Positions 2,407 through 58,725 are shown, counted from the first letter of the stretch. The stretch is 64,000 nt of DNA from an uncultured Gammaproteobacteria bacterium (GCA_964571295.1 CAZNAO010000001.1:3749-67748); one strand, 5' to 3'. The notes: generated by a model from the letters alone, not told the origin. Numbers and translations are program-made.

Positions 2407-2439
2407 TTAGACCTTCTTCGACCATTGTTCGAGCGTCCT

Positions 2440-3561
2440 ATGTCTCACCTCAATCGACTACTTATTCTTTCTCTTTCTACTGGAGGTGGGCATATACAAG
2501 CTGCACGCGCACTTGAAAAGACTGTAGCGCGCGATTTTCCCCACATTGTCTGTCGGCACATTGATGTAGCTGATTTTATTACCCCTCTATTCAAAACTAC
2601 TACGATCGGAGGATACAGCTTCCTCATTTCACATTTACCACGTGTCTGGAAATCTCTATTTAAGCTTACCGACAATACACGTATCATGTCGGCATATCGC
2701 ACGCTCACCAACTATCTCAAAAAATTAAATTCATTCGATTTTTTACACGAAGTCGAAGCTTTTCGTCCGGATCACATTATTTGCACCCATTTCCTACCTG
2801 CGGAAATACTTGCCCATGCTCAAAAAAAGCAAATGAATAAAATTCCCCTTACTGAAATCATCACTGACTATGGAGTACATCCTGCATGGGTGATCGATGG
2901 CATTGACACCTATATCGTTGCGACACCTTCCATGAAACAATACTTAACAGACTCCTTTGCCATTCCTTCTTCAGCCATTCAAACTTTTGGTATACCCATC
3001 GACCCTGCATTTCAAAATTCGGAAGATCCCGTACATCTCAAATCTTCATATGGATTTTCTCCTACCAACCCACTTATTCTAGTTTTGGCAGGCGGGAGCG
3101 GATTAATCGATATAGTAGCCGTACTTGAACGGCTTTTCTCACATATCGCTTCTCCTGTAACGATCATTGCGGTTGCGGGAAACAATGAAGTTCTCCATAG
3201 ACGTATCACCAAGCTTACTCCTCCTTCATATATTACTTATCGTACCTACGGTTGGACTGACCGTATTCCTGAATTTATGCGTATGGCCTCGGTAGTCGTA
3301 AGTAAACCTGGGGGACTTACCACCACGGAATGTATGTCCCTTGGAGTACCCTTGATCGCAATTAACCCGATCCCTGGACAGGAGGAATTTAATGTTGGCT
3401 TCCTTTCAGAGGCCGGAAGAGGTGCATATGCACCAACCATTGAGGATATCTGTCCACTTCTCGATCGATATCTCTCAACAGACTATGTACCAAAAGACCG
3501 TGTTTCTTCACGGTCTGCTCACCAGATTATAGAATTTCTCGCTTCTCAGCCATTATCATAG
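2440..3561 (+). CDS. GT28-family glycosyltransferase (MGDG-synthase/UgtP-like diacylglycerol glycosyltransferase)
   Basis: Track ORF 2425 starts with TTG; the in-frame ATG is at 2440. N-terminal LILSLSTGGGHIQAARAL and C-terminal KPGGLTTTECMSLGVPLI...PGQEEFN are hallmarks of MurG/MGDG-synthase GT28 enzymes. Confidence 0.8.
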   Translation: MSHLNRLLILSLSTGGGHIQAARALEKTVARDFPHIVCRHIDVADFITPLFKTTTIGGYSFLISHLPRVWKSLFKLTDNTRIMSAYRTLTNYLKKLNSFDFLHEVEAFRPDHIICTHFLPAEILAHAQKKQMNKIPLTEIITDYGVHPAWVIDGIDTYIVATPSMKQYLTDSFAIPSSAIQTFGIPIDPAFQNSEDPVHLKSSYGFSPTNPLILVLAGGSGLIDIVAVLERLFSHIASPVTIIAVAGNNEVLHRRITKLTPPSYITYRTYGWTDRIPEFMRMASVVVSKPGGLTTTECMSLGVPLIAINPIPGQEEFNVGFLSEAGRGAYAPTIEDICPLLDRYLSTDYVPKDRVSSRSAHQIIEFLASQPLS

Positions 3562-4013
3562 AGATTGGGATCGTTGGGCGGAATATATGTGTCCGGATCT
3601 TGCCCTGGGGTCATCGGATTTTGTAGGCTGCTGTAGAGCCCGCTGTACACCGCATACACGATACTATATGCTCCCAAAATGATGACCAGTCCGATCACGC
3701 TATAGAGTAATATCTTTTTACCCCCTCCCATCTTTTCTTCATTACCGTTTGAGGTCATAATCATGAATCCCCCTGCTATCGCAAAGACTACGGCGATCGT
3801 ACCAATCACGCCCAGGGAAATTTTTATCAAGCTTGCCGCAATAACTCGAGGATCTCTTGATTCTCCTAAATTCGCACCTTTTTGTCCGGCAAATCCCTGG
3901 AGTTGCTGATTGATGTCTGCTTGAAGTCCCTGCGCATACGCATAGGAACTAATACCCAGTCCTAAAGCAATCACCACTGCACCTATCCATATTTTTTTTG
4001 TACGCCACGTCAT
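3546..4013 (-). CDS. TrbC/VirB2-type (T4SS-pilin-like) small membrane protein, paralog 1 of 11
   Basis: Track ORF starts with TTG at 4043; the ATG at 4013 sits 13 nt after the upstream gene's stop. It has a signal peptide, then ISLGVIGTIAVVFAIAGGFMIMTSNGNEEKMGGGKKILLYSVIGLVIILGAYSIV (two TM helices around a short charged loop), and a Pro/Asp-rich tail. Confidence 0.7.
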   Translation of the reverse strand: MTWRTKKIWIGAVVIALGLGISSYAYAQGLQADINQQLQGFAGQKGANLGESRDPRVIAASLIKISLGVIGTIAVVFAIAGGFMIMTSNGNEEKMGGGKKILLYSVIGLVIILGAYSIVYAVYSGLYSSLQNPMTPGQDPDTYIPPNDPNLYDNG

Positions 4014-4026
4014 ATTCTTACTCTCA

Positions 4027-4431
4027 TTACTTAAATCCTCCAACCTCAGAAGCGATTCTGGTTAACACAAAATTCGTAATGCTATACGCGCATAAAATGA
4101 TGATAAGACCGATTATCGCGTACTGAATGATTTTCTTAGCACCCCCCACCTTCTCATCATTCCCTGCCGCAGTAAACATGATAAAACCTGCATAAAAGAC
4201 TAGTAGTAAAAATATCGTTCCAAGAAGGGAAAGCACTATCTTTACCCCTTCGGCCACGGCAATTCTAGGATCCTTGGCTTCAGCGCCATATCCTGCCGCA
4301 CCAGACCCTGCATTCAATTGTCCCAATACATCCGGGCCCGTACCGATTACTTCTCGTACCGGTAGTGCACTGCCCAGACACACCAACCCGATCATCATCC
4401 CCACCACTGCACTGTTCCATTTTTTTTTCAT
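4027..4431 (-). CDS. TrbC/VirB2-type pilin-like membrane protein, paralog 2
   Basis: Signal peptide, then KIVLSLLGTIFLLLVFYAGFIMFTAAGNDEKVGGAKKIIQYAIIGLIIILCAYSITNFV. ATG confirmed at 4431. Confidence 0.75.
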   Translation of the reverse strand: MKKKWNSAVVGMMIGLVCLGSALPVREVIGTGPDVLGQLNAGSGAAGYGAEAKDPRIAVAEGVKIVLSLLGTIFLLLVFYAGFIMFTAAGNDEKVGGAKKIIQYAIIGLIIILCAYSITNFVLTRIASEVGGFK

Positions 4432-4440
4432 ATGATCGGA

Positions 4441-4839
4441 TTATGGTGAGGTACTTGTAGCAGTAAGCGCACCCTCCATCACTCGTGTTACCACAAAATT
4501 GGTAATACTATATGCCATGAGCAATATGATAAGACCAATAATTGACGTACTGATAATACTTTTTGCCTTCGTTACCGCCTCATCGTTCCCCGCCGCAGTC
4601 ATCCAGAGATATCCTGCGTAAATAATAAGTACCGTAAAAATAACCCCCAGAAGTGACAACAGAATCCTTATTGCTCGCCCCACATTCTCAGCAAATGTCG
4701 TCTCGGTTGCCGCAGCATATCCTGCCCGTCCCGCTGCCTGATCTACTCTTTCAGTACCCAAATCAATTGCGTAGACTCCCGGAACAAATACGAACACAAG
4801 CATGAGGGAGAGAAGGAACGTTTTGAGACGGAAATACAT
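4441..4839 (-). CDS. TrbC/VirB2-type pilin-like membrane protein, paralog 3
   Basis: Signal peptide, then IRILLSLLGVIFTVLIIYAGYLWMTAAGNDEAVTKAKSIISTSIIGLIILLMAYSITNFV. Confidence 0.75.
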   Translation of the reverse strand: MYFRLKTFLLSLMLVFVFVPGVYAIDLGTERVDQAAGRAGYAAATETTFAENVGRAIRILLSLLGVIFTVLIIYAGYLWMTAAGNDEAVTKAKSIISTSIIGLIILLMAYSITNFVVTRVMEGALTATSTSP

Positions 4840-4850
4840 AGTATTGAATT

Positions 4851-5237
4851 TTAATTCCCAAACTGTCGAGTTACGAATATTGTAATTGCGTATGCAGAAA
4901 CCACAATAAACAATCCCATGATTGAGGATTTAAAAATTTCTTTCGCTTTTGAAACCATTTCATCATTTCCTCGAGCAGTCATCCAGAGATATCCTGCGTA
5001 GACGGTAAGAATAAGAAATACCAACCCAATCATGCTTAATGCTACTTTGATTATATTTCCCACAATCACGCTGATATCACTTTCGACATTTCCACCGATC
5101 CCTTGTTGCACATTTTTGAGATTATCGTCCGCACTCCCCAATCCTTGTCCCCAGACATGAAAAGGGATCATACCCCACGTAAGCATTACCACGAAGAGAA
5201 GATGGTAGACTTTTTTACCTGTTTTCGATACTTGCAT
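4851..5237 (-). CDS. TrbC/VirB2-type pilin-like membrane protein, paralog 4
   Basis: Upstream Met codons of the track ORF overlap the neighbouring gene, so the start is taken at the ATG at 5237 (MQVSKTGKK...). Core: VALSMIGLVFLILTVYAGYLWMTARGNDEMVSKAKEIFKSSIMGLFIVVSAYAITIFV. Confidence 0.7.
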   Translation of the reverse strand: MQVSKTGKKVYHLLFVVMLTWGMIPFHVWGQGLGSADDNLKNVQQGIGGNVESDISVIVGNIIKVALSMIGLVFLILTVYAGYLWMTARGNDEMVSKAKEIFKSSIMGLFIVVSAYAITIFVTRQFGN

Positions 5238-5259
5238 ACGATAATCTGAAATTATGTTT

Positions 5260-5652
5260 TTATAGTCCGACAGCTCCGGTAACAAATGTCGAAATTGCAA
5301 ATCCCGAAACCGCAATCAAGAGCCCGATAATTGCAGCAATAATGGTTTTTTTCGCCTCGGCAATCTTTTCTTCCTCACCACGTGCGAGAAACCATATCAC
5401 TCCGGCATAGAGCATGAGCAGGAAAAATATGAGACCGGTGATTCCAAAAAACCACTGTGCCACTTCTCCCACATACGTTGCTACTTCGTTTTTTGGAAGT
5501 CCAGTTGGTGCTATGGCCTGATTCAGCATTCCCGGAGCATCTCCGATTTTCTTTGCCGCATTCGCGATTGTACTATGCATGCACGCTACCAACAGTCCAG
5601 TACCTAGTCCTGTATAAATACCCCACTGTTTCTTTGTTCTTTTGGAGAACAT
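5260..5652 (-). CDS. TrbC/VirB2-type pilin-like membrane protein, paralog 5
   Basis: Start taken at ATG 5652 (MFSKRTKK...), one nt after the upstream TAG stop. Core: FFGITGLIFFLLMLYAGVIWFLARGEEEKIAEAKKTIIAAIIGLLIAVSGFAISTFV. Confidence 0.7.
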   Translation of the reverse strand: MFSKRTKKQWGIYTGLGTGLLVACMHSTIANAAKKIGDAPGMLNQAIAPTGLPKNEVATYVGEVAQWFFGITGLIFFLLMLYAGVIWFLARGEEEKIAEAKKTIIAAIIGLLIAVSGFAISTFVTGAVGL

Positions 5653-5653
5653 A

Positions 5654-6286
5654 CTAAGAAGGTTGCCATCTACACTTTGTATCTCCATTGCAACCATCTT
5701 CATCATTATTCCACATTTCACATTTATGTCCTGAACTTGTTACCGCAACACAGGTGATTCCGTTTGCACCACCTGCCATACAATAACCCACACGATCATC
5801 GTCATTGGTGGTACTACAAATCACTCCTCCCTGCCCCTGAATTTGGGTACAATATTCTTGATCGACTACACAACGACCTTGCGCAGTCGGAGTTGGCGTT
5901 GGTGTCGTATTTCCTCCACCACCACCTGCATTTCCCCCCAGCTGGAATACGAAATTGGTCAAGGCATACGCTCCCATGACGATAATAATACCGATCGTCG
6001 CCCCGATAATCGTATTGAGTGCCTTTCCCGTCTGCTCACTGTTGCCTCGCGCGGTCATCCAGAGGATTCCTCCGTATAGTACTAACACAAAAAATAATAC
6101 CGAAATCATAGAAAGCAATGTTCCTATGATGTTTCCTGCAATGGTTGGGACACTATTGCCATAACCAGTGAGACCCGCGGCACCCGCCGTCTCATCCAAC
6201 CCGAAATTCGCTGCCATGACGGTCGGTACCATCACCATTGACACTGCAATACATAAGCCGGTAATAAATGGTGCGTATTTGCGCAT
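5654..6286 (-). CDS. TrbC/VirB2-type pilin-like protein with a C-terminal Gly/Thr/Pro linker and Cys-rich domain, paralog 6
   Basis: Signal peptide, the conserved core (LLSMISVLFFVLVLYGGILWMTARGNSEQTGKALNTIIGATIGIIIVMGAYALTNFV), then GGNAGGGGGNTTPTPTPTAQG and an ~70-aa module with 9 Cys. Confidence 0.7.
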   Translation of the reverse strand: MRKYAPFITGLCIAVSMVMVPTVMAANFGLDETAGAAGLTGYGNSVPTIAGNIIGTLLSMISVLFFVLVLYGGILWMTARGNSEQTGKALNTIIGATIGIIIVMGAYALTNFVFQLGGNAGGGGGNTTPTPTPTAQGRCVVDQEYCTQIQGQGGVICSTTNDDDRVGYCMAGGANGITCVAVTSSGHKCEMWNNDEDGCNGDTKCRWQPS

Positions 6287-6316
6287 ACGATAGAAAAAAT
6301 TATTATTCTATTTACG

Positions 6317-6733
6317 TTATCCAAAACTGGGTCCACACGAACCAGTTGTAGCGCATAGTGCCCGTATGATGTAGCTTGTAATCGCGTATGATGTGAAAAT
6401 AATGATAAGCCCGATCACCGCTGAAATCAACATTTTTTTTGCACTCCCTACTTTCTCATCATTCCCCCCTGCGGTCATCCAGGTGAAACCTGCATAGAGC
6501 ACGATACATACCGCAATAAGCCCAAGAAACGTGAGGACAAAATTGATAATTCTAATAGCTAAAATTCGAGGATCCTCTTTTGTCAACCCCGTACCTTCCC
6601 CACAATCGACCCCCAATATGTCATTTGGATTACTGCATCCCTGCGCGTACACCTGACTTCCCCATAGCAGTGCGAGCCCAAAAAACGCTGCGACTACCAG
6701 TAATGCACGAGTTTTTTGTATGTTCATATGCAT
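6317..6733 (-). CDS. TrbC/VirB2-type pilin-like membrane protein, paralog 7
   Basis: The N-terminal mature region has Cys pairs (QGCSNPNDILGVDCGEG). Core: VLTFLGLIAVCIVLYAGFTWMTAGGNDEKVGSAKKMLISAVIGLIIIFTSYAITSYI. Confidence 0.75.
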   Translation of the reverse strand: MHMNIQKTRALLVVAAFFGLALLWGSQVYAQGCSNPNDILGVDCGEGTGLTKEDPRILAIRIINFVLTFLGLIAVCIVLYAGFTWMTAGGNDEKVGSAKKMLISAVIGLIIIFTSYAITSYIIRALCATTGSCGPSFG

Positions 6734-6840
6734 GGATTGAATTACTCACAGTTTTCCCGGCTTATTGTAACATACTAAGTCAGGAAAACTGTGATACCAT
6801 ATACTGTTTGGCATATGGTTCACAATATTTGTTCTGAAAC

Positions 6841-7275
6841 TTACGGTGTAGTACCTTCGATAGCTGCACCGATATTTGAGACAAAGAACTGAGCGATTGC
6901 ATATGCAGAGAGAATGATCGCAAGACCAATCACTGATGCAATAATAATCTTCTTTGCTTCGCCTACCGCTTCGTCATTGCCACCTGCGGTCATCCATTTG
7001 AAACCTCCCCAGAGGATCAAAATCACTGCGATCAAACCAAGGAACGTCAACGCGAGATTGATCAATCTAATGATGACGATTCGTGCATCGGTTTCACCAG
7101 TAGTTACATTGATATTTTGTGCAACCGGATCCAAACCATAGTCCACGCCAGGATCTATCTGTGCGCTCGTTGTTGCCGGTGAGAGAGAGAACACGCTTAC
7201 CAAAGCAGCGACGCCTAATAGGAGCGCATTTCGATGCTTCAGTAATTTTGCTACTGTGTTATTCACACTTCTCAC
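6841..7275 (-). CDS. TrbC/VirB2-type pilin-like membrane protein, paralog 8
   Basis: GTG start with an AAAGGGGG SD-like element just upstream. Core: LALTFLGLIAVILILWGGFKWMTAGGNDEAVGEAKKIIIASVIGLAIILSAYAIAQFF. Confidence 0.7.
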   Translation of the reverse strand: MRSVNNTVAKLLKHRNALLLGVAALVSVFSLSPATTSAQIDPGVDYGLDPVAQNINVTTGETDARIVIIRLINLALTFLGLIAVILILWGGFKWMTAGGNDEAVGEAKKIIIASVIGLAIILSAYAIAQFFVSNIGAAIEGTTP

Positions 7276-7339
7276 CCCCTTTCAATGTATGATATTTTTT
7301 CATACGCGTCACGTATTTTACGTGATGTGTTATTTACAC

Positions 7340-7987
7340 TTAAGGTGCAGCCTGTAAAGTCTGCAAAATCAACGTAAGTATAGCATAGCTGCTGAAAACC
7401 ACAATAATACCTATCCCAGCCCACAACATTGCCTGCATTCCTTTTGCAATTTTTTCTGAATTTCCCGCGCTCGTAAGCCACTGAAATCCTCCATAGACAA
7501 ATACCACAAACGCAATCGTACCAATTATTCCTACCACCACTTTTACCGTATTACCGAGAATTATTTTGATATCAGTCTCACCAAGCGGATTTACCAACGA
7601 CACACAGTCTTGTCCAGTCGCACAGCTGCTCGGCGTGTTGACGCTTTCATTGCTTTCCCGCTGTATCTGAATCTGTCTATACTCCTCGCACGACTGTGGC
7701 GAAGGAAATTTTTGTCCTGCAGGACATGAAGCAATGTCGGTCTCTGACTGCGAACAAAGCTTAGTAGTTGTGATATAGCAACTTCCTATAGCACCAGGGA
7801 GGACGAGATTTGGATCTTGGCACGCTCCTTCTCCAGAACCGTCATCTGCACAAACCAAACCCTCAAGACATTGTTCATCTATTTCACACGGTTCACCATT
7901 ACCGGCCTGTGCCTTAACAGGCAGCGACTGTCCTACCCCCATTATTACGATGAGTAATGCGATACTGTTTTTTAGTACACTTTTCAT
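7340..7987 (-). CDS. TrbC/VirB2-type pilin-like protein with an N-terminal Cys-rich ectodomain, paralog 9
   Basis: Signal peptide, then an ~120-aa segment with about 12 Cys (PCEIDEQCLEGLVCADD..GACQDP...), then the conserved core VVGIIGTIAFVVFVYGGFQWLTSAGNSEKIAKGMQAMLWAGIGIIVVFSSYAIL. Confidence 0.7.
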   Translation of the reverse strand: MKSVLKNSIALLIVIMGVGQSLPVKAQAGNGEPCEIDEQCLEGLVCADDGSGEGACQDPNLVLPGAIGSCYITTTKLCSQSETDIASCPAGQKFPSPQSCEEYRQIQIQRESNESVNTPSSCATGQDCVSLVNPLGETDIKIILGNTVKVVVGIIGTIAFVVFVYGGFQWLTSAGNSEKIAKGMQAMLWAGIGIIVVFSSYAILTLILQTLQAAP

Positions 7988-7993
7988 ATGATT

Positions 7994-9202
7994 TTAAAAT
8001 GGAAGTAGACTCGACTGAATTCCAATCGCTTTTACCACAAATCCAATAAGGATATACGCAGAAAAAGTAATAATAAGTCCCAAGGTTGCCGCTACCAAGA
8101 TTTGCTTCCCCTGTCCCACTTTTTCCGCATTTCCAAATGACATGATCATGGTGATCCCGCCATACACGAAGAAGACAAAAGCGAGTCCTGCAATCACGGA
8201 GAAAAGCCACTCTGCCACCTTTACCCCCAACTCAACCAGGTCTTCTACATTTCGACATGACCCATCCCATGCACAGTCCGGAAGTGGACCATTGTAATTT
8301 GCAGGTTTTTGATGTGTACTTGATATCCACGCATCTATTGCCTCGGAAGTATTCACCTGCACGATCCTGTCTACACATTTTTCATTATCCCCTATCTTAC
8401 AGTGCAGCACTTTAGTACATGTATTTGGATCCAACTCACTACATTTGGTTGTATTATCTGACTTAGAGATGCATTTTGCACCTGTCTGCCACCACAGACA
8501 CGCCGCATCCGCATTACACTGCTCTACATTTGCTCCGTATTTACTTTGACAAGCTGTATTGGTCGGCGGATAATCATTGTTACCCGCTATTTTCATGAAA
8601 TAGACAAACACTTCATCCGGATTCTGGTCCAATTCACAAAACCAGTATCTGGTACGAAATAACTCGTCATCTCCCTCAATTGCGCTTTCTTGTGCAAAAT
8701 GATATTTGGTTACCAAATCATCTGGCTCATTGTCAGGATATGCACCGCTATTACAGCCGCGATCTGCGCTATTATTCCCTTCAAAAATCCACTCACCATT
8801 TTCTTCACCCGGACTCATTCTGAATTGTCTGATCACATCCTCATCACCCCATTCTGGACTTATGATTTTATTTCCCGTGACATTGACCCCATTGATGAGA
8901 TCTGTCCACTCCGCCCATGTTTTATCTTTTGCCACGGTTACACAAAAAAATTCACCTCGGTTATCTTTGGGATGGTGTGTCTGATAATCAAAATCCTCAT
9001 TAGTCTGATGACTTCCATTAAATTTTTCTCCATTTGGGCGAGTTATCTTAAAAATGGCAATTTGTTGATTTTCATTCGGTGCTACCGGACATTTGAATCC
9101 TTTTAAATCCACAGGATATTCAGCTGCTACGGCACTTCCTGTCCATGCACCAAATGCGAGAAGTAGTGCGATAATATATATGTTGACTTTTCTATATCTC
9201 AT
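7994..9202 (-). CDS. large TrbC/VirB2-type pilin-like fusion: unknown ~300-aa N-terminal ectodomain plus C-terminal pilin core, paralog 10
   Basis: Signal peptide and a long Cys-containing extracellular region, with C-terminal core WLFSVIAGLAFVFFVYGGITMIMSFGNAEKVGQGKQILVAATLGLIITFSAYILIGFV. The N-terminal domain is paralogous to that of 10695..11738 (YPVDLKGFKCPVAPNENQQIAIFK vs YTVNLGDFKCPQAPENNRKIAIFK). Confidence 0.7.
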   Translation of the reverse strand: MRYRKVNIYIIALLLAFGAWTGSAVAAEYPVDLKGFKCPVAPNENQQIAIFKITRPNGEKFNGSHQTNEDFDYQTHHPKDNRGEFFCVTVAKDKTWAEWTDLINGVNVTGNKIISPEWGDEDVIRQFRMSPGEENGEWIFEGNNSADRGCNSGAYPDNEPDDLVTKYHFAQESAIEGDDELFRTRYWFCELDQNPDEVFVYFMKIAGNNDYPPTNTACQSKYGANVEQCNADAACLWWQTGAKCISKSDNTTKCSELDPNTCTKVLHCKIGDNEKCVDRIVQVNTSEAIDAWISSTHQKPANYNGPLPDCAWDGSCRNVEDLVELGVKVAEWLFSVIAGLAFVFFVYGGITMIMSFGNAEKVGQGKQILVAATLGLIITFSAYILIGFVVKAIGIQSSLLPF

Positions 9203-9210
9203 ATATCAAA

Positions 9211-10596
9211 TCAATAGGTTTGCTGAATTTTTGCCGCCGTATTTATGATTACCGACTTATCTTTTCTCAGTGTTTCTTCCGGAGTATTTCCCTGTCTCAG
9301 AAACTCGGTTATCATATCTTTCAATGCAGTGGTCGCCACATCCACTTCTCGTCCTCGATACCAATTTTCTGCAAAGAGTGCCTGTGTCGCAAATGGACCC
9401 AGTGTTTCATTCTCCTGTTGTGCCGTAATCTGTTCCCGATACGGACTTGGCCTGAATGTGGCAGTCACGTATTGCTGCACTTTTTCTTTCGAGGTAATAA
9501 AATTCACGAAGCCCCATGCCTCATTCTGATTCTGGGATTTTTTCACGACTGATTCCACCCAATAATTGGCAACGTTTACCGGTGTTTCCGGATTGAGTTG
9601 TGGAATAGTTGCAATCTTGATCGCGAGCTGTGGAGCGCGCGCTTGCAATCTCGGATAATCATACGCGAATCCAAGGAAAAATGCCGTGCGACCTCTCACG
9701 AATTCGTCAAACGCATTTTGCATACGATCATTCCAGCTATACCGATCTGCGGTCGCTCGTGCGAAACCGGTATAGAAATCGAGCGCTCGGATGGTCGAGT
9801 GTGTCCGACTCTGATCTCGATCAACTCCAGAGGCAAATGCTACCGTATCCCCGTCTGTCACTTTTGACCCACTTTGAAGCATGAGTAGTGCAACAATGTC
9901 TGCAAAATTATCGATATTATTCGATGTGCCCATCGCGACTCCCGATTGGATTATATCGAGCGTAGCACTGAATTTCGTCGTCTGTTGCACCGCACGTACA
10001 AACTCATCCCAGGTCTTTGGAGCTTCCGCAATACCCGAGCGATCAAGAATCGTCTGATTGTAGAACAATGCAAGCGAATCAAGGGCCATCGGAAGGCCGA
10101 AAATACCTTCATTGATAATGATATCTTTTGCGACCGTCTGGACATACTGATTTCGAATGTCACGTTCCCGGGGAAGTGATACCGTATCCACCACCACTTC
10201 CTGCTCTTTGGTATATTGATTCTTGGTTATCAGACGTGGTAATTGTACCGATGCAGGTGCCGCAGCAAGTCTGCTTTCATTCTTCCTAAGCCACCGAACA
10301 TGCATCGATACGATATCCGGACCCACATCATCCGCAAGCGCATTGGTGAACAATGAATCGAATTCTTCATACCGTACTTGTCGAATATTGATCGTTACAT
10401 GCGGATAACGCGCTGAATACTCCACTGCATACGCTCGCAATTGTTCGACATCTCCGTAGACCGTCCAATAATTCAAAGTGATCGGACGGAGTGATGCCCG
10501 CTCTTCCTGATTCAATCCTTTACAACCAAAACCACTGAATATCAAAAGAACACTCAACACTCCCAAGGATAGTAGCGATGTAACTTTTTTCCTCAT
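9211..10596 (-). CDS. ABC-transporter extracellular solute-binding lipoprotein (family-1 SBP, sugar-type)
   Basis: Signal peptide with lipobox LIFSGFGC and a 461-aa periplasmic-binding-protein-like product. It lies between the two large pilin-fusion paralogs. Confidence 0.65.
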   Translation of the reverse strand: MRKKVTSLLSLGVLSVLLIFSGFGCKGLNQEERASLRPITLNYWTVYGDVEQLRAYAVEYSARYPHVTINIRQVRYEEFDSLFTNALADDVGPDIVSMHVRWLRKNESRLAAAPASVQLPRLITKNQYTKEQEVVVDTVSLPRERDIRNQYVQTVAKDIIINEGIFGLPMALDSLALFYNQTILDRSGIAEAPKTWDEFVRAVQQTTKFSATLDIIQSGVAMGTSNNIDNFADIVALLMLQSGSKVTDGDTVAFASGVDRDQSRTHSTIRALDFYTGFARATADRYSWNDRMQNAFDEFVRGRTAFFLGFAYDYPRLQARAPQLAIKIATIPQLNPETPVNVANYWVESVVKKSQNQNEAWGFVNFITSKEKVQQYVTATFRPSPYREQITAQQENETLGPFATQALFAENWYRGREVDVATTALKDMITEFLRQGNTPEETLRKDKSVIINTAAKIQQTY

Positions 10597-10611
10597 AACA
10601 TTCCATCTTAA

Positions 10612-10685
10612 GTCGAAAGTCTGTAAAGTCGAAAGTCTGTAAAGTAATTGGTGTTTTGGTTTATGGACTTTAAGACTTTACGGAC
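10612..10685. repeat. intergenic repeat: perfect tandem 16-mer GTCGAAAGTCTGTAAA x2 (10612-10643) plus the inverted, related GGACTTTAAGACTTTACGGAC (10665-10685)
   Basis: Read directly from the sequence. Related motifs occur at 12634-12694 and 31099-31170. Confidence 0.8.
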
Positions 10686-10694
10686 GTTATAGGC

Positions 10695-11738
10695 TCATTT
10701 AAATATTTCAAATATAAATCCTACCAGTGCGTAACTTGCAAAAATAAGCGCTACCCCCAGGGTCGCCCACACTATCGTATTTTGCGCTTTCGTCTGAGTT
10801 TCCGAATTTCCCCGGGCGGTCATCCACAATACTCCACCATAAATGATCATTATGAGTGCAATGGTACCGATTATCCCAAGCACCCCTCGAATGAGCATTC
10901 CCACAAACTGAGAAAGATCTGTCGTCTGAAGCAGATTCAATCTCCGGGCATATTCGGATAGATTACTTGTTCCACCCGTACTTGAACTCGTATTTCCTCC
11001 TGAATTTGAAGAAGGTGTCGAAGACGCGGAGGGGTCATCTGGCGCAGGATAGTCTTCTTTCTCCGCAATTTTCATAAAATACACAAAAGCCTGTTCAACC
11101 CCATGACCTTCATCACTGGGAATGCCGTAAAAATAAAATCTTACTCGCGGAGCAAGATTTGCCTCCTGCTCCGAAAGAGGTCCACACCCATACAAAAACG
11201 TAGGCAAACATGTTTGGGCAAAATGATACATTACATCGTTATCGTCCGGTTCATCATTGGCATCTGAGGATCCCATCACCTCGTTCCAACCATAACCAGT
11301 TCCGTCTGCTTGTCGTTCATCCTTCCACTCGTCGTCTACATAAAATTGTCTAATCACATCTTCATTTCCCCATTCAGTAGGAACTAGTTTTTGCCCCACA
11401 ATATCAACCCCCTGGGTCAGATCATTCCATGTCGCTGAGTTTCGATTCTTATCTACCGTTATGCAGAAAAATCGCCCGGAGTCGAGTTTCGGCTGATGTT
11501 CTACTGTATTATAATGCTCTGTCTCTTCTCCATCATCATCAAACTCTGTCGCACCATTGGCCACATCCGGGATAACCAATTTGAAAATCGCTATTTTTCT
11601 GTTGTTCTCCGGAGCCTGCGGACATTTAAAATCACCAAGATTGACTGTATACGGCTCTGTTGCGGCCACACTTCCCGTCCACGCACACCACAACATCATG
11701 GTTGCCGCGATATATGAATAAACTGCCGTTTTGGTCAT
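10695..11738 (-). CDS. large TrbC/VirB2-type pilin-like fusion with the shared N-terminal ectodomain, paralog 11
   Basis: Paralog of 7994..9202 across the N-terminal domain (GRFFCITVDKNRNSATWNDLTQGVDIVGQKLVPTEWGNEDVIRQF vs GEFFCVTVAKDKTWAEWTDLINGVNVTGNKIISPEWGDEDVIRQF). Ser/Thr/Gly-rich linker, then core VLGIIGTIALIMIIYGGVLWMTARGNSETQTKAQNTIVWATLGVALIFASYALVGFI. Confidence 0.7.
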   Translation of the reverse strand: MTKTAVYSYIAATMMLWCAWTGSVAATEPYTVNLGDFKCPQAPENNRKIAIFKLVIPDVANGATEFDDDGEETEHYNTVEHQPKLDSGRFFCITVDKNRNSATWNDLTQGVDIVGQKLVPTEWGNEDVIRQFYVDDEWKDERQADGTGYGWNEVMGSSDANDEPDDNDVMYHFAQTCLPTFLYGCGPLSEQEANLAPRVRFYFYGIPSDEGHGVEQAFVYFMKIAEKEDYPAPDDPSASSTPSSNSGGNTSSSTGGTSNLSEYARRLNLLQTTDLSQFVGMLIRGVLGIIGTIALIMIIYGGVLWMTARGNSETQTKAQNTIVWATLGVALIFASYALVGFIFEIFK

Positions 11739-11753
11739 ATGCGGTATTACAAC

Positions 11754-12596
11754 TTATAGTAGGCCTTCCTTTTTTGCAAAATGAATTGCAGTCTTCAATA
11801 ATGCCAGTTTGTTTCCGGTATCAAAATATTCCCCTTCGTATTCGTATGCGAAAAATTTCTTTTTCTTGGCGAGCGTGTGTGCCGCATCTGCAAGCCATAT
11901 TTCCCCATCTTTGCCCGTACCTTGCTCCTGCAAGATATTCCATATGTCCGAGGTCAAAATATAGCGCATCCCTCCCACAATAAGACCATATGGTGACACA
12001 TGTTCTAGAGCAGGTTTTTCTTTGAACTCAGTGACGCGATAGAGCCCGCCACCCAGAGGTTTTCCATACACATTTCCATATTTACGCATTTCCTCTTTGT
12101 TTCCTATTTTTTGCACTCCAATAATTGAAGCTTTTTTCTTGTAAAAGATGTCGAGAAGCTGAGCTATTACCGGAGTTTTCGCATCAATGATGCTATCTCC
12201 ATCTGAAAACGCAAACGGCTCATCGCCTATAAATTCTCTCGCACAAAGAAGCGCATGTCCATTCCCTAGCGGTTCTGGCTGTCTGGTGTAGAAAAATCGC
12301 ACTTTTTTATTTAATTCGATCAATGATTGAACTCGGTCGAGTTTTCCCTGCCGTTCTAGATATGCCTCATAATCAGGATCGCGATCAAAATGATCTTCGA
12401 TAGCACGTTTCTGAGAACTGGTCACAAAAATGATTTCCGTTATGCCGCTCGCCGCCATTTCTTCGACAATATACTGGACGACCGGCTTATCGAGTACTGG
12501 TAACATCTCTTTCGGCATGGCTTTGGTTGCTGGAAGAAAACGAGTTCCAAGCCCCGCGACAGTAATAACACCTTTTTTGACACGAATATTCTTCAT
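11754..12596 (-). CDS. galU: UTP--glucose-1-phosphate uridylyltransferase
   Basis: N-terminal VITVAGLGTRFLPATKAMPKEMLPVLDKPVVQYIVEE is the GalU nucleotide-binding signature. Confidence 0.85.
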   Translation of the reverse strand: MKNIRVKKGVITVAGLGTRFLPATKAMPKEMLPVLDKPVVQYIVEEMAASGITEIIFVTSSQKRAIEDHFDRDPDYEAYLERQGKLDRVQSLIELNKKVRFFYTRQPEPLGNGHALLCAREFIGDEPFAFSDGDSIIDAKTPVIAQLLDIFYKKKASIIGVQKIGNKEEMRKYGNVYGKPLGGGLYRVTEFKEKPALEHVSPYGLIVGGMRYILTSDIWNILQEQGTGKDGEIWLADAAHTLAKKKKFFAYEYEGEYFDTGNKLALLKTAIHFAKKEGLL

Positions 12597-43647: not shown

Positions 43648-45036
43648 ATGACCAACTACGAGATTTGGCAGGCAGTGCTTGCCGAATTTGAACTCACTCT
43701 CTCGAAAGCGAATTTCACCACCTGGTTCAAAAATACCGGTATTGCTAACTATGAGAATGGGAATGTTGTAGTCTGTGTCCCCAATGCATTCACCAAAAGC
43801 TGGCTGGAAAAGAAATATCACGCCACCATTGTCAAAATACTTGAACGCGTCACTGGTAAACCGGTCAAAAAAATCGATTATACGGTCGACAATGTACGCA
43901 ATATCAAAGAGCAGGAGTGTACTCCTCTTTCGGTCGAAGCTCCTAAAGCTCCGATTATTCATGCCCCAATCACCCCGTTACCCAAGAAAGCCTTGTTGGT
44001 GCAACAATTCGGACTCAACCCCAAATACGTATTTGAAACCTTTGTCGTCGGAAAAGGAAACGAGCTTGCTCACGCCGCGGCACAAGCTGTCGCCTCACGT
44101 CCGGGAGATGCGTATAATCCTTTGTTTATCTACGGAGGAGTCGGACTGGGCAAAACCCACCTGATCCAGGCTATCGGGCACACCATGCTTGTCGCAAATC
44201 CCAATGTAAAGATTCTCTACGTAAGTTCTGAGAAATTCACCAATGAATTTGTCGCTTCGGTCAAAGAAGGACGTGCAAAAGAATTCAAAGACCGCTACCG
44301 CAATGTCGATCTTCTTCTGATTGACGATATCCAGTTTATCGGCGGGAAAGAACAAACCCAGGAAGAATTTTTCCACACGTTTAATGAGCTCCACCAGCAA
44401 GGTAAGCAAGTGGTCATGACGAGCGACCGGCCACCCAAAGCTATTCCAGCTCTTGAGGACCGTCTTCGCAGCCGCTTTGAATGGGGGATGATTGCGGATA
44501 TCTCGGCCCCTGACCTTGAAACCCGAATGGCGATCATCCAGAAGAAAGCTCAGGAACGCCAATTTCCAATCCCTCCTGATATCCAAACGCTCATCGCAAC
44601 GAATGTACAGAGTAATATCCGTGAACTTGAGGGCGCTCTTAATAAGATTATCGCATTCCATGAACTCAAAAATACGGTTCCGACTGATGAATCCATCCGT
44701 CACATTCTCTCTAGCTTCCAGGAACAGAACATGCGTCGCTCGCTTACCCCGAAGAACCTGATTGAGGAAGTAATTAAGTTTTACGATCTCAAATTGGAAG
44801 ATATTGTGGGGAAAAGCCGGGAAAAACGCTTTGCTTTCCCGCGACAAGTCATCATGTATCTCATGAGAGAGGAATTGAAACTGTCTTACCCGAGCATTGG
44901 TGAGGAACTTGGCGGACGGGACCATACCACTGCCATGCATGCACACACCAAAATCACTCTGGAAGTTGATAATGATCTCAAACTTAAGCAGGATCTTGAG
45001 CTTATCAAACAGCGTTTATACACAAATAAAATTTAA
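43648..45036 (+). CDS. dnaA: chromosomal replication initiator protein DnaA
   Basis: N-terminal MTNYEIWQAVLAEFE..., AAA+ Walker A GGVGLGKTHL, and C-terminal DNA-binding helix ...LGGRDHTTAMHAHTKI. Confidence 0.95.
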   Translation: MTNYEIWQAVLAEFELTLSKANFTTWFKNTGIANYENGNVVVCVPNAFTKSWLEKKYHATIVKILERVTGKPVKKIDYTVDNVRNIKEQECTPLSVEAPKAPIIHAPITPLPKKALLVQQFGLNPKYVFETFVVGKGNELAHAAAQAVASRPGDAYNPLFIYGGVGLGKTHLIQAIGHTMLVANPNVKILYVSSEKFTNEFVASVKEGRAKEFKDRYRNVDLLLIDDIQFIGGKEQTQEEFFHTFNELHQQGKQVVMTSDRPPKAIPALEDRLRSRFEWGMIADISAPDLETRMAIIQKKAQERQFPIPPDIQTLIATNVQSNIRELEGALNKIIAFHELKNTVPTDESIRHILSSFQEQNMRRSLTPKNLIEEVIKFYDLKLEDIVGKSREKRFAFPRQVIMYLMREELKLSYPSIGEELGGRDHTTAMHAHTKITLEVDNDLKLKQDLELIKQRLYTNKI

Positions 45037-45282
45037 ATTCTGTGCATAACTGAGGGAAAAATATGCATTTTAACTGGGGACGATGATGTGGGTAAGTAAA
45101 AGTTTTCCACACCCATGGTGGATAGTCCAAAATATACACACGCTTTGTTCAACCTTTGTTCTCCATTTATCCCCACACAAAAATGAAATATTTTGCTAAA
45201 ATAAGCCACTAAATTGAATTATCTACCGTATCCACAGCCTCTATTATTATCTTCTAGATTATATAAATAAAAAGAAAGAAAT
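45037..45282. other. candidate oriC (dnaA-dnaN intergenic region)
   Basis: At least four DnaA-box-like 9-mers (TTTTCCACA 45103, TGGATAGTC-rc 45118, TTATCCCCA 45167, TATCCACAG 45229) plus an AT-rich stretch TATTATTATCTTCTAGATTATATAAATAAAAAG just before dnaN. Confidence 0.6.
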
Positions 45283-46410
45283 ATGAAATTAACATCCACA
45301 CGAGAAAATTTATTGTATAGTCTTGAGATAGCGAATTCATTTGCAGGTAAGCATGCTAACTTACCGATATTACAGAATGTATTACTTCGGGCACATGAGT
45401 CAGGAGTTGAAATCAGTGCAACCAATCTCGAAGTTTCTATTAAAACGCATATACGTGCAAAAGTAGAAGAACCAGGAACTTTTACTGTTCCCGCCCGTAC
45501 GCTTACCGAATATGTGCGTCTCCTTACAAACGACCAGGTAGAACTTTCTCTTGAAGGGTCAGAACTTATCGTACGTTCGGCTGGCTCGGAAACCAAAATA
45601 AAAGGATTTCCTGCCGATGAATATCCGGTTATTCCGGGTATTGAAGAAGGGCATACGTATCTGATCAAGGCGGAATCATTTCGTGAGGCGATTGGGCGTG
45701 TCGTGGTGTCATGTGCAAAGAACGAAATACGGCCTGAATTTTCCGGCGTATTTTGCCGTTTCAATAGCGAGCGTTACTCAGGTCTTCTTATGGCAGCAAC
45801 CGACTCGTATCGCTTGTCTGAAACCCGTATTCCTTTGGCACAGGGTGAGGATCCTGAGGTTACGTGTATCATTCCTGGGCGTGTCATGTACGAGATCGCG
45901 CGCCTGATACAATTGGGCCGGGGACATGAAGGGGAAGAAAACGTCAGGTTGACCGTGAGTACTAATCAGGTGGCGGTCAGATATGATACATTTGAGATGG
46001 TTAGCCGATTGATCGACGGGCGTTATCCGGATTATACACAGATTATCCCTACTTCGTTTAAGACACATGGAACATTTTCCGTGAGTGAGATGATAAACAA
46101 GATCAAGGCAGCGAGTTTGTTTTCAACTGCCGGAGTGAATGCGATTTCGTTCAGCTTTGATGCTGAAAAAAAACAGATAGCCGTTGCGTCAAACAGCACT
46201 CAGACGGGTGAGCATGTTTCATATATCGATACTGCCGTAGAAGGGGATACACAGTCAGTACTTCTCAATCATCGGTACGTACTTGATGGATTGCAACAGA
46301 TCGAAGCGGATGAGGCAGAGATCGAATTAACAACGCCAGACGCACCCTGCCTCATTCGGGTCAAGGGAAATGAGACATTCCAGTATATCGTGATGCCGAT
46401 CAGACAATAA
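45283..46410 (+). CDS. dnaN: DNA polymerase III beta sliding clamp
   Basis: MKLTSTRENLLYSLEIANSF...LPILQNVLL... typical DnaN N-terminus, three-domain length, and position after dnaA. Confidence 0.9.
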   Translation: MKLTSTRENLLYSLEIANSFAGKHANLPILQNVLLRAHESGVEISATNLEVSIKTHIRAKVEEPGTFTVPARTLTEYVRLLTNDQVELSLEGSELIVRSAGSETKIKGFPADEYPVIPGIEEGHTYLIKAESFREAIGRVVVSCAKNEIRPEFSGVFCRFNSERYSGLLMAATDSYRLSETRIPLAQGEDPEVTCIIPGRVMYEIARLIQLGRGHEGEENVRLTVSTNQVAVRYDTFEMVSRLIDGRYPDYTQIIPTSFKTHGTFSVSEMINKIKAASLFSTAGVNAISFSFDAEKKQIAVASNSTQTGEHVSYIDTAVEGDTQSVLLNHRYVLDGLQQIEADEAEIELTTPDAPCLIRVKGNETFQYIVMPIRQ

Positions 46411-55665: not shown

Positions 55666-58600
55666 ATGAAAGAACAATGGAGGGAAGTGGTACTTATTGT
55701 TTTTCTTGTTGCGATAAGTATTTTTTTGTTTTCAAAACAGGCTGTGACTGTCTCTGAGTCAATTATCATTACTGAAATTTGTCCGAGCGGATGCGCTCTT
55801 ACTGATCACCAATGGATAGAGATATATAACAAAAGTTCGGAGCCGATTGACTTAGCTGGCTGGAAATTCTGGGAAGGTGGGGTAAACCATGGGCTTACCC
55901 TGAGTCCGAGTAGTACCGTAACTTCCACTATTCTCTCATCGGGCGCATATGCAGTTATTACTCAGAATGATCGCATATTTTTTGGAGACCATCCTAGTGT
56001 TACCTCAACGGTGTTTGATAGCGCATGGACTACACTTACTAAAACCGGTGAGGAGATCGGGATTAAAAAGGGAAATGGAATTGATGATTTTGTAGAACAA
56101 TTTGTCTACGCCAGTGTAGACAAATATTCACTTGAGCGCATACATCCGAATGGAGATCCTGCAAGTATGCTTGAATGGAAAGAACATCCTGACGCTTCTA
56201 CCCCTGGATCGGAAAATTATTGGTGGGTGCAGAGTGGGGAAGGATCTGTAAACCGTATTCCGTATGCACAGTTTACTCTACCCACCTCAACCCTTGTTGG
56301 TGAGACTGTTATATTCGATGCATTCGCTTCGAGTGATTTTGAGGGGTTTATTGAACGATATGTGTGGATGATTGAGGGGCTGGAATATGAAGGGGTGAGT
56401 GTGGAGTATGTGTTCACTGCAACCGGGACGAAACATATTTCACTTACCGTATATGATACAGCATCTGCTTCAAGCACGATTTCGCGAGATATTGAAGTGG
56501 TATCTCTCACTGATGATGAAGAAATTATCCAACGTCCGCCTCCAAGAATTTTTATTAATGAATTTCTTAGTGATCCACATAGTGGAGAAAAAGAATGGAT
56601 TGAATTATACAATTCGGAAGATGGAGATGTGGTGCTTGGTGGATATACTCTCTATGATGGTGTCGGGAAAATTGCGAACGTGACCGGAACTATTGAAGCA
56701 TTCGGATTCCGAACCGCGTATCTCACTTCGAGTAAATTGAATCAGACCGGAGACCGAATCGTGCTTATGGATCCTACGGGAGATGTGGTTGATAGTGTGT
56801 CTTATGGAAATTGGGAGGATGGAGACATCACCGATAACGCGGGCGCGCCTAAGAAAGGCTATTCGACCGCACGAAACAGTGATGGGGAGGATACGGATAT
56901 CGATCAATCCGATTTTTCGTATACGATCACTCCAACACCAAATTTTCCGAATAATATTACCGCAGATCCAGTACCCGTGCCGCCTCAAGTCGTGAATTCT
57001 CCGATCGTCTATTCTCAAGAGGCCACACAGACAAAACTGACATTTCCTGATGGTAGTGTTGTAGTCAGTGAGTTCGTATCAGCTCCGTCTACCGGAGTAG
57101 TTGAATTTGTAGAATTGTATAACACGACTTCTGATTCAATTTCACTTGAAGGATGGATACTTCGTGATGGAAGCGGAGCGAATACCACACTCGTGGGTAC
57201 GATATCAGCATGGGGATTTTTCGTGATCGACAAACCGAAAGGAAGTCTGAATAACGCAGGAGACCTAATTATGCTTCTTGATCCAAGCGGAAAAGAGATT
57301 GACCGCGTGGTGTATGGAAATTGGAATGGTGAAGATAGTGCTGTTGCGGCACCAAGCAAAGGGCAGTCCGCGGCACGGACAGACAGCGTTTTTGATTTTC
57401 GAATTACCGATCTCATTACGAAAGGTTCGATAAACCAGATTGTCCAAAATTCTGTGTCGGGTGGTGATAGGGTGAATACTTCAACATCTTCGACACTTTC
57501 GTCTTCCGACAGTGATTTGTCTATTGATTTGTTTTCTCCTGAGTTTCTTCCGATCATTACTGAAGTGCTTCCTAATCCGCTTGGTGCCGACACACAGAAT
57601 GAATATGTCGAATTGTACAATCCGTTTGATCGCGATATTTCGCTTGCTGGATTATTTCTTGATGATATTGAAGGTGGGTCAAAACCGTATGCGTTTAGTG
57701 CGGATTCTATGCTTCGGTCACATGAATACCGGGTTTGGTATTCCAAAGATACTAAACTTTCTTTTGCTAATACGTCTGACAGTGTGCGAATTTTGGATTC
57801 TGAACACACGGTTTTACAAGAAGTGGAATATTTCGGGGCAAAAGAGAATAAGTCCTATACCTCTGGGGCCGATATGTGGTTCTGGACCTCTGAATTGAGT
57901 CCAAACACGGAAAATCCGTTGGCCCCTCTTCCTGATGTTGTCTCAGATACCAGAGCTAAAACAACTGCTGCAAAAACAGCCGTCAAAACGACGCTTGCGC
58001 AAGTGCGTAATTTTGATGTTGGTACACCGGTGACAATGGACGGCGTTGTGTTGGTGCCGCCTGGAGTACTCAGTACGCAATATGTGTATGTGGGTAGTGA
58101 ATCCGGTATTGGGATTCAAGTGTATTCGTATAAAAAAGAATTTCCTGAAATCGCTTCGGGAGATAAGGTGGTCATATCAGGTGAACTTTCTGAAGTGTCC
58201 GGTGAGATGAGGGTAAAGCTTGCCAGTCTTGGTGATGTAGAGCTTGTTCACTCTGCCACGACCACGCTTATTGCCCCATATCCAGTCGCAGTGGTGGATG
58301 TTGGGGAATCGTATGAGGGTGGTTTGGTAGAGGTTACGGGAGAAATTACCGGTGTTAAGGGATCATATATTTATCTTGATGATGGGACTGACGAGGTCAA
58401 GCTATATATCCGTGGAGGATCAGGAATTGACAAGAACATGTTTGTCGAAGGTGCTCGTGCGCGGGTTGCTGGCATCGTGCAAGAAACTAAGAGCGGCTAT
58501 CATATTTCACCGCGAGATCAGTCTGATGTGGTTGTTGAAAATAATGAAGTCCGAGGAGAAAAGATTGAAGCAGAAAATTCTCTGGAACCCTCGTATTCCT

Positions 58601-58725
58601 CAACACAGCTGGTTCGTGTCGCTATTATACTTTTTGCGGGATTCGCACTTGTGCTTGGGAGCAGGTTGTATGGGGTGAAGATGATCGAGTTCATACGATC
58701 GAGAATACACAAGCGTGAGCACTGA
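55666..58725 (+). CDS. giant surface protein with about four lamin-tail domains, a PKD-like domain, an OB-fold-like region and a C-terminal TM anchor
   Basis: Repeated LTD signature (ITEICPSGC..WIEIYN..DLAGWKF; INEFLSDPHSGEKEWIELYN; VSEFVSAPSTGVVEFVELYN...LEGWILRDGSG; ITEVLPNPLGADTQNEYVELYNP). PKD-like LTVYDTASASST. C-terminal TM VRVAIILFAGFALVLG. Confidence 0.7.
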   Translation: MKEQWREVVLIVFLVAISIFLFSKQAVTVSESIIITEICPSGCALTDHQWIEIYNKSSEPIDLAGWKFWEGGVNHGLTLSPSSTVTSTILSSGAYAVITQNDRIFFGDHPSVTSTVFDSAWTTLTKTGEEIGIKKGNGIDDFVEQFVYASVDKYSLERIHPNGDPASMLEWKEHPDASTPGSENYWWVQSGEGSVNRIPYAQFTLPTSTLVGETVIFDAFASSDFEGFIERYVWMIEGLEYEGVSVEYVFTATGTKHISLTVYDTASASSTISRDIEVVSLTDDEEIIQRPPPRIFINEFLSDPHSGEKEWIELYNSEDGDVVLGGYTLYDGVGKIANVTGTIEAFGFRTAYLTSSKLNQTGDRIVLMDPTGDVVDSVSYGNWEDGDITDNAGAPKKGYSTARNSDGEDTDIDQSDFSYTITPTPNFPNNITADPVPVPPQVVNSPIVYSQEATQTKLTFPDGSVVVSEFVSAPSTGVVEFVELYNTTSDSISLEGWILRDGSGANTTLVGTISAWGFFVIDKPKGSLNNAGDLIMLLDPSGKEIDRVVYGNWNGEDSAVAAPSKGQSAARTDSVFDFRITDLITKGSINQIVQNSVSGGDRVNTSTSSTLSSSDSDLSIDLFSPEFLPIITEVLPNPLGADTQNEYVELYNPFDRDISLAGLFLDDIEGGSKPYAFSADSMLRSHEYRVWYSKDTKLSFANTSDSVRILDSEHTVLQEVEYFGAKENKSYTSGADMWFWTSELSPNTENPLAPLPDVVSDTRAKTTAAKTAVKTTLAQVRNFDVGTPVTMDGVVLVPPGVLSTQYVYVGSESGIGIQVYSYKKEFPEIASGDKVVISGELSEVSGEMRVKLASLGDVELVHSATTTLIAPYPVAVVDVGESYEGGLVEVTGEITGVKGSYIYLDDGTDEVKLYIRGGSGIDKNMFVEGARARVAGIVQETKSGYHISPRDQSDVVVENNEVRGEKIEAENSLEPSYSSTQLVRVAIILFAGFALVLGSRLYGVKMIEFIRSRIHKREH

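Follow-up and report, generated by a model that had tools for sequence, protein, structure and literature searches.

We report here on an array of VirB2-like pilin genes within a 64,000-nucleotide stretch of DNA deposited under the name of an uncultured Gammaproteobacteria bacterium (GCA_964571295.1, CAZNAO010000001.1:3749-67748; hereafter the window), in which the gene of a sugar-type solute-binding protein lies between two genes whose products fuse a large N-terminal domain to a pilin-like core. A sugar-type binding protein recurs in such arrays across several Candidate Phyla Radiation (CPR, or Patescibacteria) lineages, and the comparison of related genomes suggests that the pilin anchors are conserved scaffolds, each specific to its position, on which the ectodomains are exchangeable cassettes. 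With moderate confidence, we favour a reading of the whole as ectodomain-bearing, pilin-like surface modules accompanied, in a CPR array, by a recurrent binder of sugars or glycans.

The three genes in question are the first of an 11-gene PF18895 array (3546-11738), and all genes of this region are on the minus strand. Every one of the 11 array genes scores above the Pfam gathering cut-off of PF18895 (T4SS_pilin, 26.6 bits; T4SS, type IV secretion system), and in all 11 a G-[NE]-x-E loop connects the two hydrophobic helices; matches of the array cores to TrbC (PF04956) are weak and below cut-off. The gene between the two fusions encodes a solute-binding protein of family 1 (sugar-type, CUT1-like), for which the Pfam cut-offs are 26 bits (SBP_bac_1) and 27 bits (SBP_bac_8). 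Its closest solved relatives in the PDB are sugar-binding proteins, including maltose binders; the GanS and MalE equivalogs match it weakly, at 24 and 18 bits, far below their cut-offs. The single cysteine, C25, closes the hydrophobic signal stretch as it does in a lipoprotein, and the protein is probably a lipoprotein, as the original prediction had it. Homologues are numerous (more than 476 at E<=1e-20); the best 120 are 47-92% identical and ~455-461 aa long, and those among them with a source name come from Magasanikbacteria or Patescibacteria.

A binding protein inside a pilin array had been called unusual. It is instead a recurrent array component, because the gene stands immediately before a pilin gene at 14 of 17 CPR loci, that is, in all ten sequences of Magasanikbacteria type and in four of seven more distant loci; where checked, 8-97 bp separate it from the next gene. 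Even where the binding proteins share only ~27-31% identity, the gene keeps its position directly upstream of a pilin. At the Saccharibacteria-labelled L012, whose protein is 27% identical to that of the window, three pilins follow the gene, and the opposite strand carries a GalU-like gene just upstream of it. At L085 (protein 51% identical to that of L012) the gene is followed by four pilins and two unannotated genes, with TrbL_3 ~4 kb beyond the array; at L086, whose protein is named Falkowbacteria, by nine pilins, a 122-aa gene and DUF2079; and at L089, a 1.2-Mb contig, by seven pilins, an 80-aa gene and NTP_transferase. At L090 a 421-aa pilin fusion and NTP_transferase precede the gene, and a 174-aa gene scoring just under the PF18895 cut-off, eight pilins and DUF2079 come after it.

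It is possible, if unlikely, that the binding protein described here is an ordinary uptake component, delivering a sugar or oligosaccharide to a CUT1 ATP-binding cassette (ABC) permease and ATPase whose genes lie elsewhere in the genome, with its position in the array reflecting only the co-expression of envelope genes such as those of GalU, the glycolipid synthase and the pilins. A full-length SBP_bac_1/SBP_bac_8 protein with sugar or maltose binders as its nearest solved relatives would suit this role, and so would the strong purifying selection on it (dN/dS, the ratio of nonsynonymous to synonymous substitution rates, of 0.054), the sugar-nucleotide and glycolipid genes that flank the array, and the occurrence of CPR homologues without pilins (L087, L088). 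The surroundings of the gene argue otherwise: open reading frames (ORFs) for MalF/MalG-type permeases lie within 6 kb in 64 of 71 non-CPR loci holding homologues of the binding protein, and near it in none of 19 CPR sequences (the window over its 64 kb and 18 loci over 6-10 kb; 13 were scanned with a purpose-built permease hidden Markov model, and six further loci had no permease called). Run on every stop-to-stop ORF of 100 aa or more in the window, this model found no permease. In Pfam, the window's large ORFs (the array genes and, outside the array, most ORFs of 150 aa or more) showed neither an ABC permease (BPD_transp_1) nor an ABC ATPase, which bears out the original prediction that none adjoins the gene, and no histidine kinase or chemoreceptor next to it. 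Ordinary uptake is also at odds with a place beside a pilin that outlasts so much divergence of the binding protein itself.

The two fusion genes are both present, on the minus strand, where they had been predicted, and their N-terminal parts are clear paralogs (86 identities over 232 residues, 37%, E=3e-41 by BLASTP): the motifs quoted originally occur verbatim, and the similarity survives a proper alignment. The VirB2-like cores described at both C-termini were recovered too, and align as a separate match (28% over 71 aa, E=1e-10 by BLASTP). What required correction was the length of the shared domain, which is ~190-210 aa (residues ~27-215 and ~27-235) and not ~280 aa. The 347-aa protein at the head of the array (position A) consists of a signal peptide (residues 1-26), the orphan domain (27-235), a Ser/Thr/Gly-rich linker (236-271) and the PF18895 core (272-347). 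The 402-aa protein encoded after the binding protein (position B) has a signal peptide (1-26), the orphan domain (27-215), a Cys-rich segment (216-318), which is missing from its paralogue, where the linker stands instead, and a core (319-402) ending in LLPF. Both leaders are hydrophobic, one ending in AVA|AE and the other in VAA|TE. AlphaFold2 places a helical hairpin in the core of the B protein (helices 319-354 and 359-392); the full-length fusion model is poor (predicted local distance difference test, pLDDT, 55.6), and its Foldseek matches are generic helical hairpins alone. The motif that precedes the anchor at the end of the Cys-rich segment, GPLPDCAF.G.CR.VEDL, is retained in B-type proteins with unrelated N-domains (L006, L008, L009, L010, L011), and the Falkowbacteria-labelled L086 has a similar Cys-x-Cys-VEDLVQ motif. 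Two PF18895-like hairpin cores also occur in tandem within single proteins, at L085 (10503-11162) and at L089 (9411-10061 and 10206-10826).

The evidence that ectodomains move between anchors comes from nine related loci whose binding proteins are 48-92% identical (L001-L003, L005-L007 and L009-L011) and from L008 (57%, labelled Magasanikiibacteriota); L004 was too short for gene order to be judged. The order pilin A, binding protein, pilin B is kept in all ten wherever the contig reaches, and L001, the sole locus to span both ends of the array, runs from a GalU-like gene through pilin A to pilin B, about nine more pilins and a glycolipid-synthase-like gene. Against this conserved background, the ectodomains on orthologous anchors can be unrelated even though the anchors themselves are 75-89% identical. 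The A cores of the window and L001 agree at 67 of 75 positions and their ectodomains are unrelated, L001 having a ~250-aa domain with an A-H-S-A-G motif in place of the window's domain. The B cores of the window and L006 agree at 63 of 84 positions, yet the N-domains in front of them are unrelated, and of the part with the Cys-rich segment and pre-anchor motif just 42 of 89 residues align. The B proteins of L006, L008, L009 and L011 bear other domains without Pfam matches, and that of L010 bears none. Ten ectodomain-bearing pilins from the related loci gave PF18895 alone in Pfam, apart from one sub-threshold match over membrane helices.

One ectodomain family occurs on different anchors in different genomes. 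The domain with the AHSAG motif is borne by scaffold A in L001 (7284-8522) and by scaffold C in L006 (8778-10022), the two proteins being 40% identical over 409 aa (E=7e-99), and the L006 scaffold that bears it is 75% identical to the core of the window's gene at 7340-7987. The conserved A-A-H-S-A-G of this domain recalls the nucleophile elbow of alpha/beta hydrolases. Since the domain has no PDB sequence match, and no Pfam match either, the idea of an esterase comes from the motif, and an enzymatic function would be a guess. As for the domain shared by the window's two fusions, all its other full-length carriers are B-type proteins (P0002, P0003, P0005-P0007), the near-identical relative L005 has a partial A-type copy at its contig end, and the nearest relatives of the A copy are the B-scaffold copies of the window and L001 (39-42%). 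Read most simply, these relationships place the origin of the domain on the B scaffold, from which it was copied onto the A scaffold in this lineage, with the result that two paralogous ectodomains flank the binding-protein gene. A recent gene conversion between the two copies was considered and rejected, as their identity is merely 37%.

The shared ectodomain belongs to a very small family. A word-index search of 5.8 billion proteins returned four matches, two of them the window's own proteins, and a profile search of 1.84 billion representatives returned six, one of them an artefact: P0008, a Sel1-repeat protein of 1614 aa (E=1e-13 against the N-domain profile), was rejected because six of its repeats match the short motif AFVYYLKAAEQ.D. 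Combined, the searches leave five credible relatives outside the window (P0002, P0003, P0005-P0007), all of them B-type orthologues that share the whole B architecture. Neither single sequences nor all seven family members matched Pfam, the PDB gave no match by single sequence or by profile (best profile E=0.89), and Foldseek of the domain model against the PDB and viral structures returned nothing at E<=0.001. These remote-homology and structure searches thus yielded no enzyme or transporter family, and the original description of an orphan domain on a VirB2-like anchor stands. Modelled by itself with AlphaFold, the domain is beta-rich (pLDDT 69; predicted template modelling score, pTM, 0.72; 46 residues at 90 or more and 42 below 50). 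C38 and C87 are invariant across all seven members and may form a disulfide. Against the closest relative, L005, dN/dS is 0.079 for the domain, 0.054 for the binding protein and 0.025 for the pilin core; the domain is comparable with its two neighbours in this respect and is therefore constrained and functional.

How could these pieces work together? In the reading that we favour, the fusions would be exported by their Sec signal peptides and held in the membrane by the two helices of the conserved hairpin, whose short G-N-x-E...K loop would be cytoplasmic. The predicted topology has both termini outward, and a domain attached to the hairpin would therefore be displayed on the cell surface; C-terminal extensions, which occur as well (the window's 5654-6286 and L090 5704-6969), fit such a topology. 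The anchors would act as position-specific scaffolds between which ectodomain cassettes are exchanged, the ~190-210-aa domain having presumably originated on scaffold B, which is the pilin that comes first behind the binding protein, before being copied onto A. We take the ectodomains to be putative modules for recognition of, or adhesion to, the host surface, and the proteins bearing them to be either minor subunits of a T4SS-type filament or simply anchored in the membrane. The binding protein would then bind a sugar or glycan at the interface between epibiont and host, as a partner of the first pilin or of the array.

Several observations weigh against this reading. The link between binding protein and array is not universal, since three of the seven more distant CPR loci have no pilin after the gene (clearly so in the Microgenomates-labelled L087 and the Spechtbacterales-labelled L088, while the L013 contig ends just after it) and no family-1 binding protein appears in the annotation tables of S. 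epibionticum, where a pilin's neighbour of 463 aa was considered for the part and rejected, being an STT3-like glycosyltransferase. The CPR loci are phylogenetically non-independent, and a permease and ATPase could be encoded outside the window. The statement that the ectodomain has no known fold is provisional, because its model is only moderate. Pfam scans of the window's large ORFs found no VirB4, VirB6, TrbL or other T4SS machinery, and the link to a T4SS filament is consequently drawn from other genomes (L085 and the literature). Finally, judging from the structures of F- and T-pili, the tight packing of a VirB2-type filament would leave no room for a domain of 200-300 aa on each subunit; as each ectodomain is of this size, the fusions could be at most minor or terminal subunits of one.

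The last two points lead to another explanation, in which the PF18895 hairpin is a mere membrane anchor and the array encodes static surface proteins with diverse binding or enzymatic ectodomains, without any filament. Large ectodomains at either terminus and the tandem double cores of L085 and L089 are indeed hard to fit into a uniform helical filament, the window holds no T4SS machinery, and reviews call the T4SS pilus of CPR bacteria merely potential. We nevertheless regard an anchor-only role as doubtful, given that the cores match TrbC/VirB2 and the pilin-like family of Mycoplasma integrative and conjugative elements (ICEs), albeit below cut-off, that arrays stand beside virB4 or virB6 in many CPR genomes (and near TrbL_3 at L085), and that the pilin genes of the T4SS cluster of S. 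epibionticum are essential.

In the version that starts from the original prediction, the fusions would act on a T4SS pilus as receptor-binding subunits or tip adhesins, with the binding protein as a ligand sensor or scaffold. Orphan domains predicted to be exposed on pilin cores, an ectodomain turnover between relatives of the sort expected of host-range determinants, and a locally orphan binding protein are all compatible with this proposal. We consider it improbable, since nothing indicates a tip position, the window yielded neither T4SS machinery nor a VirB5-like tip protein, and the binding protein has neither histidine kinase nor chemoreceptor adjoining it. A bolder version of our own reading, and one that we consider quite improbable, would make the binding protein a dedicated ligand-capturing part of the CPR VirB2-like/T4SS apparatus, serving uptake or sensing through the pilin assembly with no ABC permease, and the ectodomain pilins interchangeable host-range modules.

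Genes for sugar nucleotides and glycosyl transfer recur along the edges of the array. An NTP_transferase or GalU-like gene adjoins the module of binding protein and pilins in the window and also in L001, L012, L089 and L090, that of the window reaching 279.5 bits against TIGR01099 (galU), below the cut-off of 326.8. In the window and in L001 the array ends at a diglucosyl-diacylglycerol-synthase-like gene, in L086 (13932-15908) and L090 (13586-15514) it ends at the membrane protein DUF2079, and an STT3/PglB-like protein adjoins a pilin of S. epibionticum. Sugar-nucleotide and glycosyltransferase genes in these places may link the module to envelope or pilin glycosylation. That the module itself serves this purpose, with GalU making UDP-glucose, nearby glycosyltransferases using it and the binding protein handling an intermediate or product of glycan nature, is the least probable of the explanations considered here, as the proposal derives purely from gene neighbourhood and, to our knowledge, binding proteins are not parts of glycosylation pathways.

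Table. Features of the pilin array and its borders in the window, by position
Position	Strand	Feature	Evidence
2425-3561	+	diglucosyl-diacylglycerol-synthase-like gene, convergent on the array end	
3546-4043	-	pilin-like PF18895 gene	Pfam, above cut-off
4027-4431	-	pilin-like PF18895 gene	Pfam, above cut-off
4441-4839	-	pilin-like PF18895 gene	Pfam, above cut-off
4851-5315	-	pilin-like PF18895 gene	Pfam, above cut-off
5260-5721	-	pilin-like PF18895 gene	Pfam, above cut-off
5654-6286	-	pilin-like PF18895 gene with C-terminal Cys-rich extension (~100 aa, 8 Cys)	Pfam, above cut-off
6317-6733	-	pilin-like PF18895 gene	Pfam, above cut-off
6841-7275	-	pilin-like PF18895 gene	Pfam, above cut-off
7340-7987	-	pilin-like PF18895 gene with N-terminal Cys-rich extension (~100 aa, 10 Cys)	Pfam, above cut-off
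7994-9202	-	position B pilin fusion, 402 aa	ORF; PF18895 30.6 bits
8249-8557	-	Cys-rich segment of B, ~100 aa, with 10 Cys and, at its end, the conserved pre-anchor motif ...GPLPDCAWDGSCRNVEDL	alignments, cysteine positions
8558-9124	-	orphan beta-rich ectodomain on its putative native B scaffold, residues 27-215, invariant Cys38 and Cys87	
9211-10596	-	family-1 (sugar-type, CUT1-like) solute-binding protein, 461 aa	SBP_bac_1 77.6 bits, SBP_bac_8 66.7 bits
10613-10644	-	16-mer CTTTACAGACTTTCGA, repeated twice in tandem just upstream of the binding-protein gene, in the 98 bp that separate it from pilin A	
10695-11738	-	position A pilin fusion, 347 aa	ORF; PF18895 32.7 bits; sub-threshold TrbC
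11034-11660	-	orphan ectodomain copy on the A scaffold, residues 27-235	37% identity to the B copy
11754-12596	-	GalU-like UTP-glucose-1-phosphate uridylyltransferase, 15 bp upstream of the array	NTP_transferase 91.9 bits

The genes at the head of the array are closely spaced, with successive gaps of 15, 98, 8 and 6 bp. A promoter and terminator scan found no terminator-like site between them; its motif counts equal the shuffle expectation and are uninformative, and co-transcription is for this reason merely plausible. The 98-bp gap contains the tandem 16-mer, which is retained in the close relative L005 with the identical two substitutions in each copy (CTTTATAGACTTGCGA, two copies) and is absent from L001 and L006. 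Such a concerted change suggests either a paired binding site or repeated slippage, and the element is possibly regulatory. The Cys-rich extensions of two further array members (5654-6286 and 7340-7987) have no Pfam match above threshold, the latter showing a weak, sub-threshold DX-module.

The window is housekeeping chromosome, with dnaA, dnaN, polA, trigger factor, tRNAs and PBP1, and encodes a signal peptidase II. The dnaA and dnaN genes (43648-46410) coincide with a minimum and sign switch of the GC skew near 44-46 kb, ~32 kb from the pilin array; the idea that the array is a mobile element or phage was rejected given this setting. Just upstream, the array is preceded by pseudopilin-like genes and by a cluster for a type IV pilus (PilB, PilC, PilM). 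By the labels of its close relatives, the chromosome is that of an ultrasmall bacterium of Candidatus Magasanikbacteria. Four of the related loci (L005, L006, L007 and L009) have the Magasanikbacteria-type gene order and binding proteins of 48-92% identity, yet were deposited as metagenome-assembled genomes of 'uncultured Gammaproteobacteria', labels that look wrong. Away from the array, positions 55666-58725 (+) encode a protein of 1019 aa that combines four lamin-tail domains and one PKD domain with an OB-fold-like C-terminus; it is probably one of the CPR cell's large surface proteins.

These findings matter because CPR bacteria, which live on the surface of host cells, account for much of bacterial diversity, and because the T4SS-like system with its pilin array is essential in the one CPR organism tested. 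Exchangeable orphan domains on pilin scaffolds, with type IV pili encoded next door, are obvious candidates for host recognition. Moreover, a sugar-type binder without a nearby permease, tied to the first pilin in several lineages, bears directly on the proposed uptake of host molecules by the CPR T4SS, whose role was called 'completely unknown' in a 2024 perspective and for which reviews have speculated on effector delivery or uptake. Were the ligand-capture idea true, it would give this essential system a concrete role, the acquisition of nutrients from the host.

VirB2-like pilin arrays of Patescibacteria have already been described, in a survey of 441 arrays with 2-11 genes each (Microb Genom 2025, PMC12102498), so the class of array reported here is known. 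As in those arrays, among them SEML1_0014-0019 of S. epibionticum, the window has tandem, sequence-divergent PF18895 genes interrupted by a non-pilin gene, and its 11 members are at the top of the reported range (PMC12102498). For T4SS genes of CPR bacteria, a location close to the replication origin is reported to be common (PMC12102498), which fits the distance from dnaA in the window. The published arrays differ in that many adjoin virB4 or virB6 (PMC12102498), neither of which is present within the window. The searchable, non-subscription literature links no solute-binding protein to CPR pilin arrays, does not name the interrupting gene, and describes no large, exchangeable or shuffled ectodomains on such pilins; relative to that literature, the exchangeable orphan ectodomains and the recurrent binding protein with no permease nearby are new.

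The fusions resemble the conjugative pilins VirB2, TrbC and TraA in having a signal peptide and two hydrophobic helices around a short charged loop, a hairpin that AlphaFold2 reproduces here. They differ in size, since the mature conjugative pilins have ~70-120 aa and the mature fusions ~321 and ~376 aa, of which 245-295 aa are predicted to be extracellular; this is outside the size of a VirB2/TrbC pilin. TrbC scores are sub-threshold, and the organism is a monoderm. Closer in setting are Mbov_0395/MMCAP2_0565 of Mycoplasma ICEs (NCBIfam NF045849, 'pilin-like conjugal transfer protein'), which share the two-helix core and belong to wall-reduced monoderms. The cores described here match that family at 25.7-31.9 bits, the A protein at 31.9, below its cut-off of 40, and the Mycoplasma proteins are single genes of ~80 aa without an ectodomain. 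The grafting of a module onto a pilin scaffold has a conceptual parallel in PilB and PilC of Streptococcus sanguinis, although these are type IV pilus proteins and not members of the VirB2 superfamily.

The binding protein, for its part, shares the SBP_bac_1/SBP_bac_8 family and the N-terminal lipoprotein-type signal with CUT1 sugar-binding proteins such as MalE, GanS and GacH, and has only weak similarity to the named equivalogs. While those binders usually have MalF/MalG permeases beside them, that of the window has none nearby and is fixed at the head of a pilin array. Solute-binding proteins that serve a T4SS-related system are nevertheless known from PrgZ/TraC, which bind pheromones and are encoded on plasmids, and from the ChvE-VirA pair, where binding proteins of families 5 or 2 are involved; the likeness to the sugar-type protein described here is one of concept.

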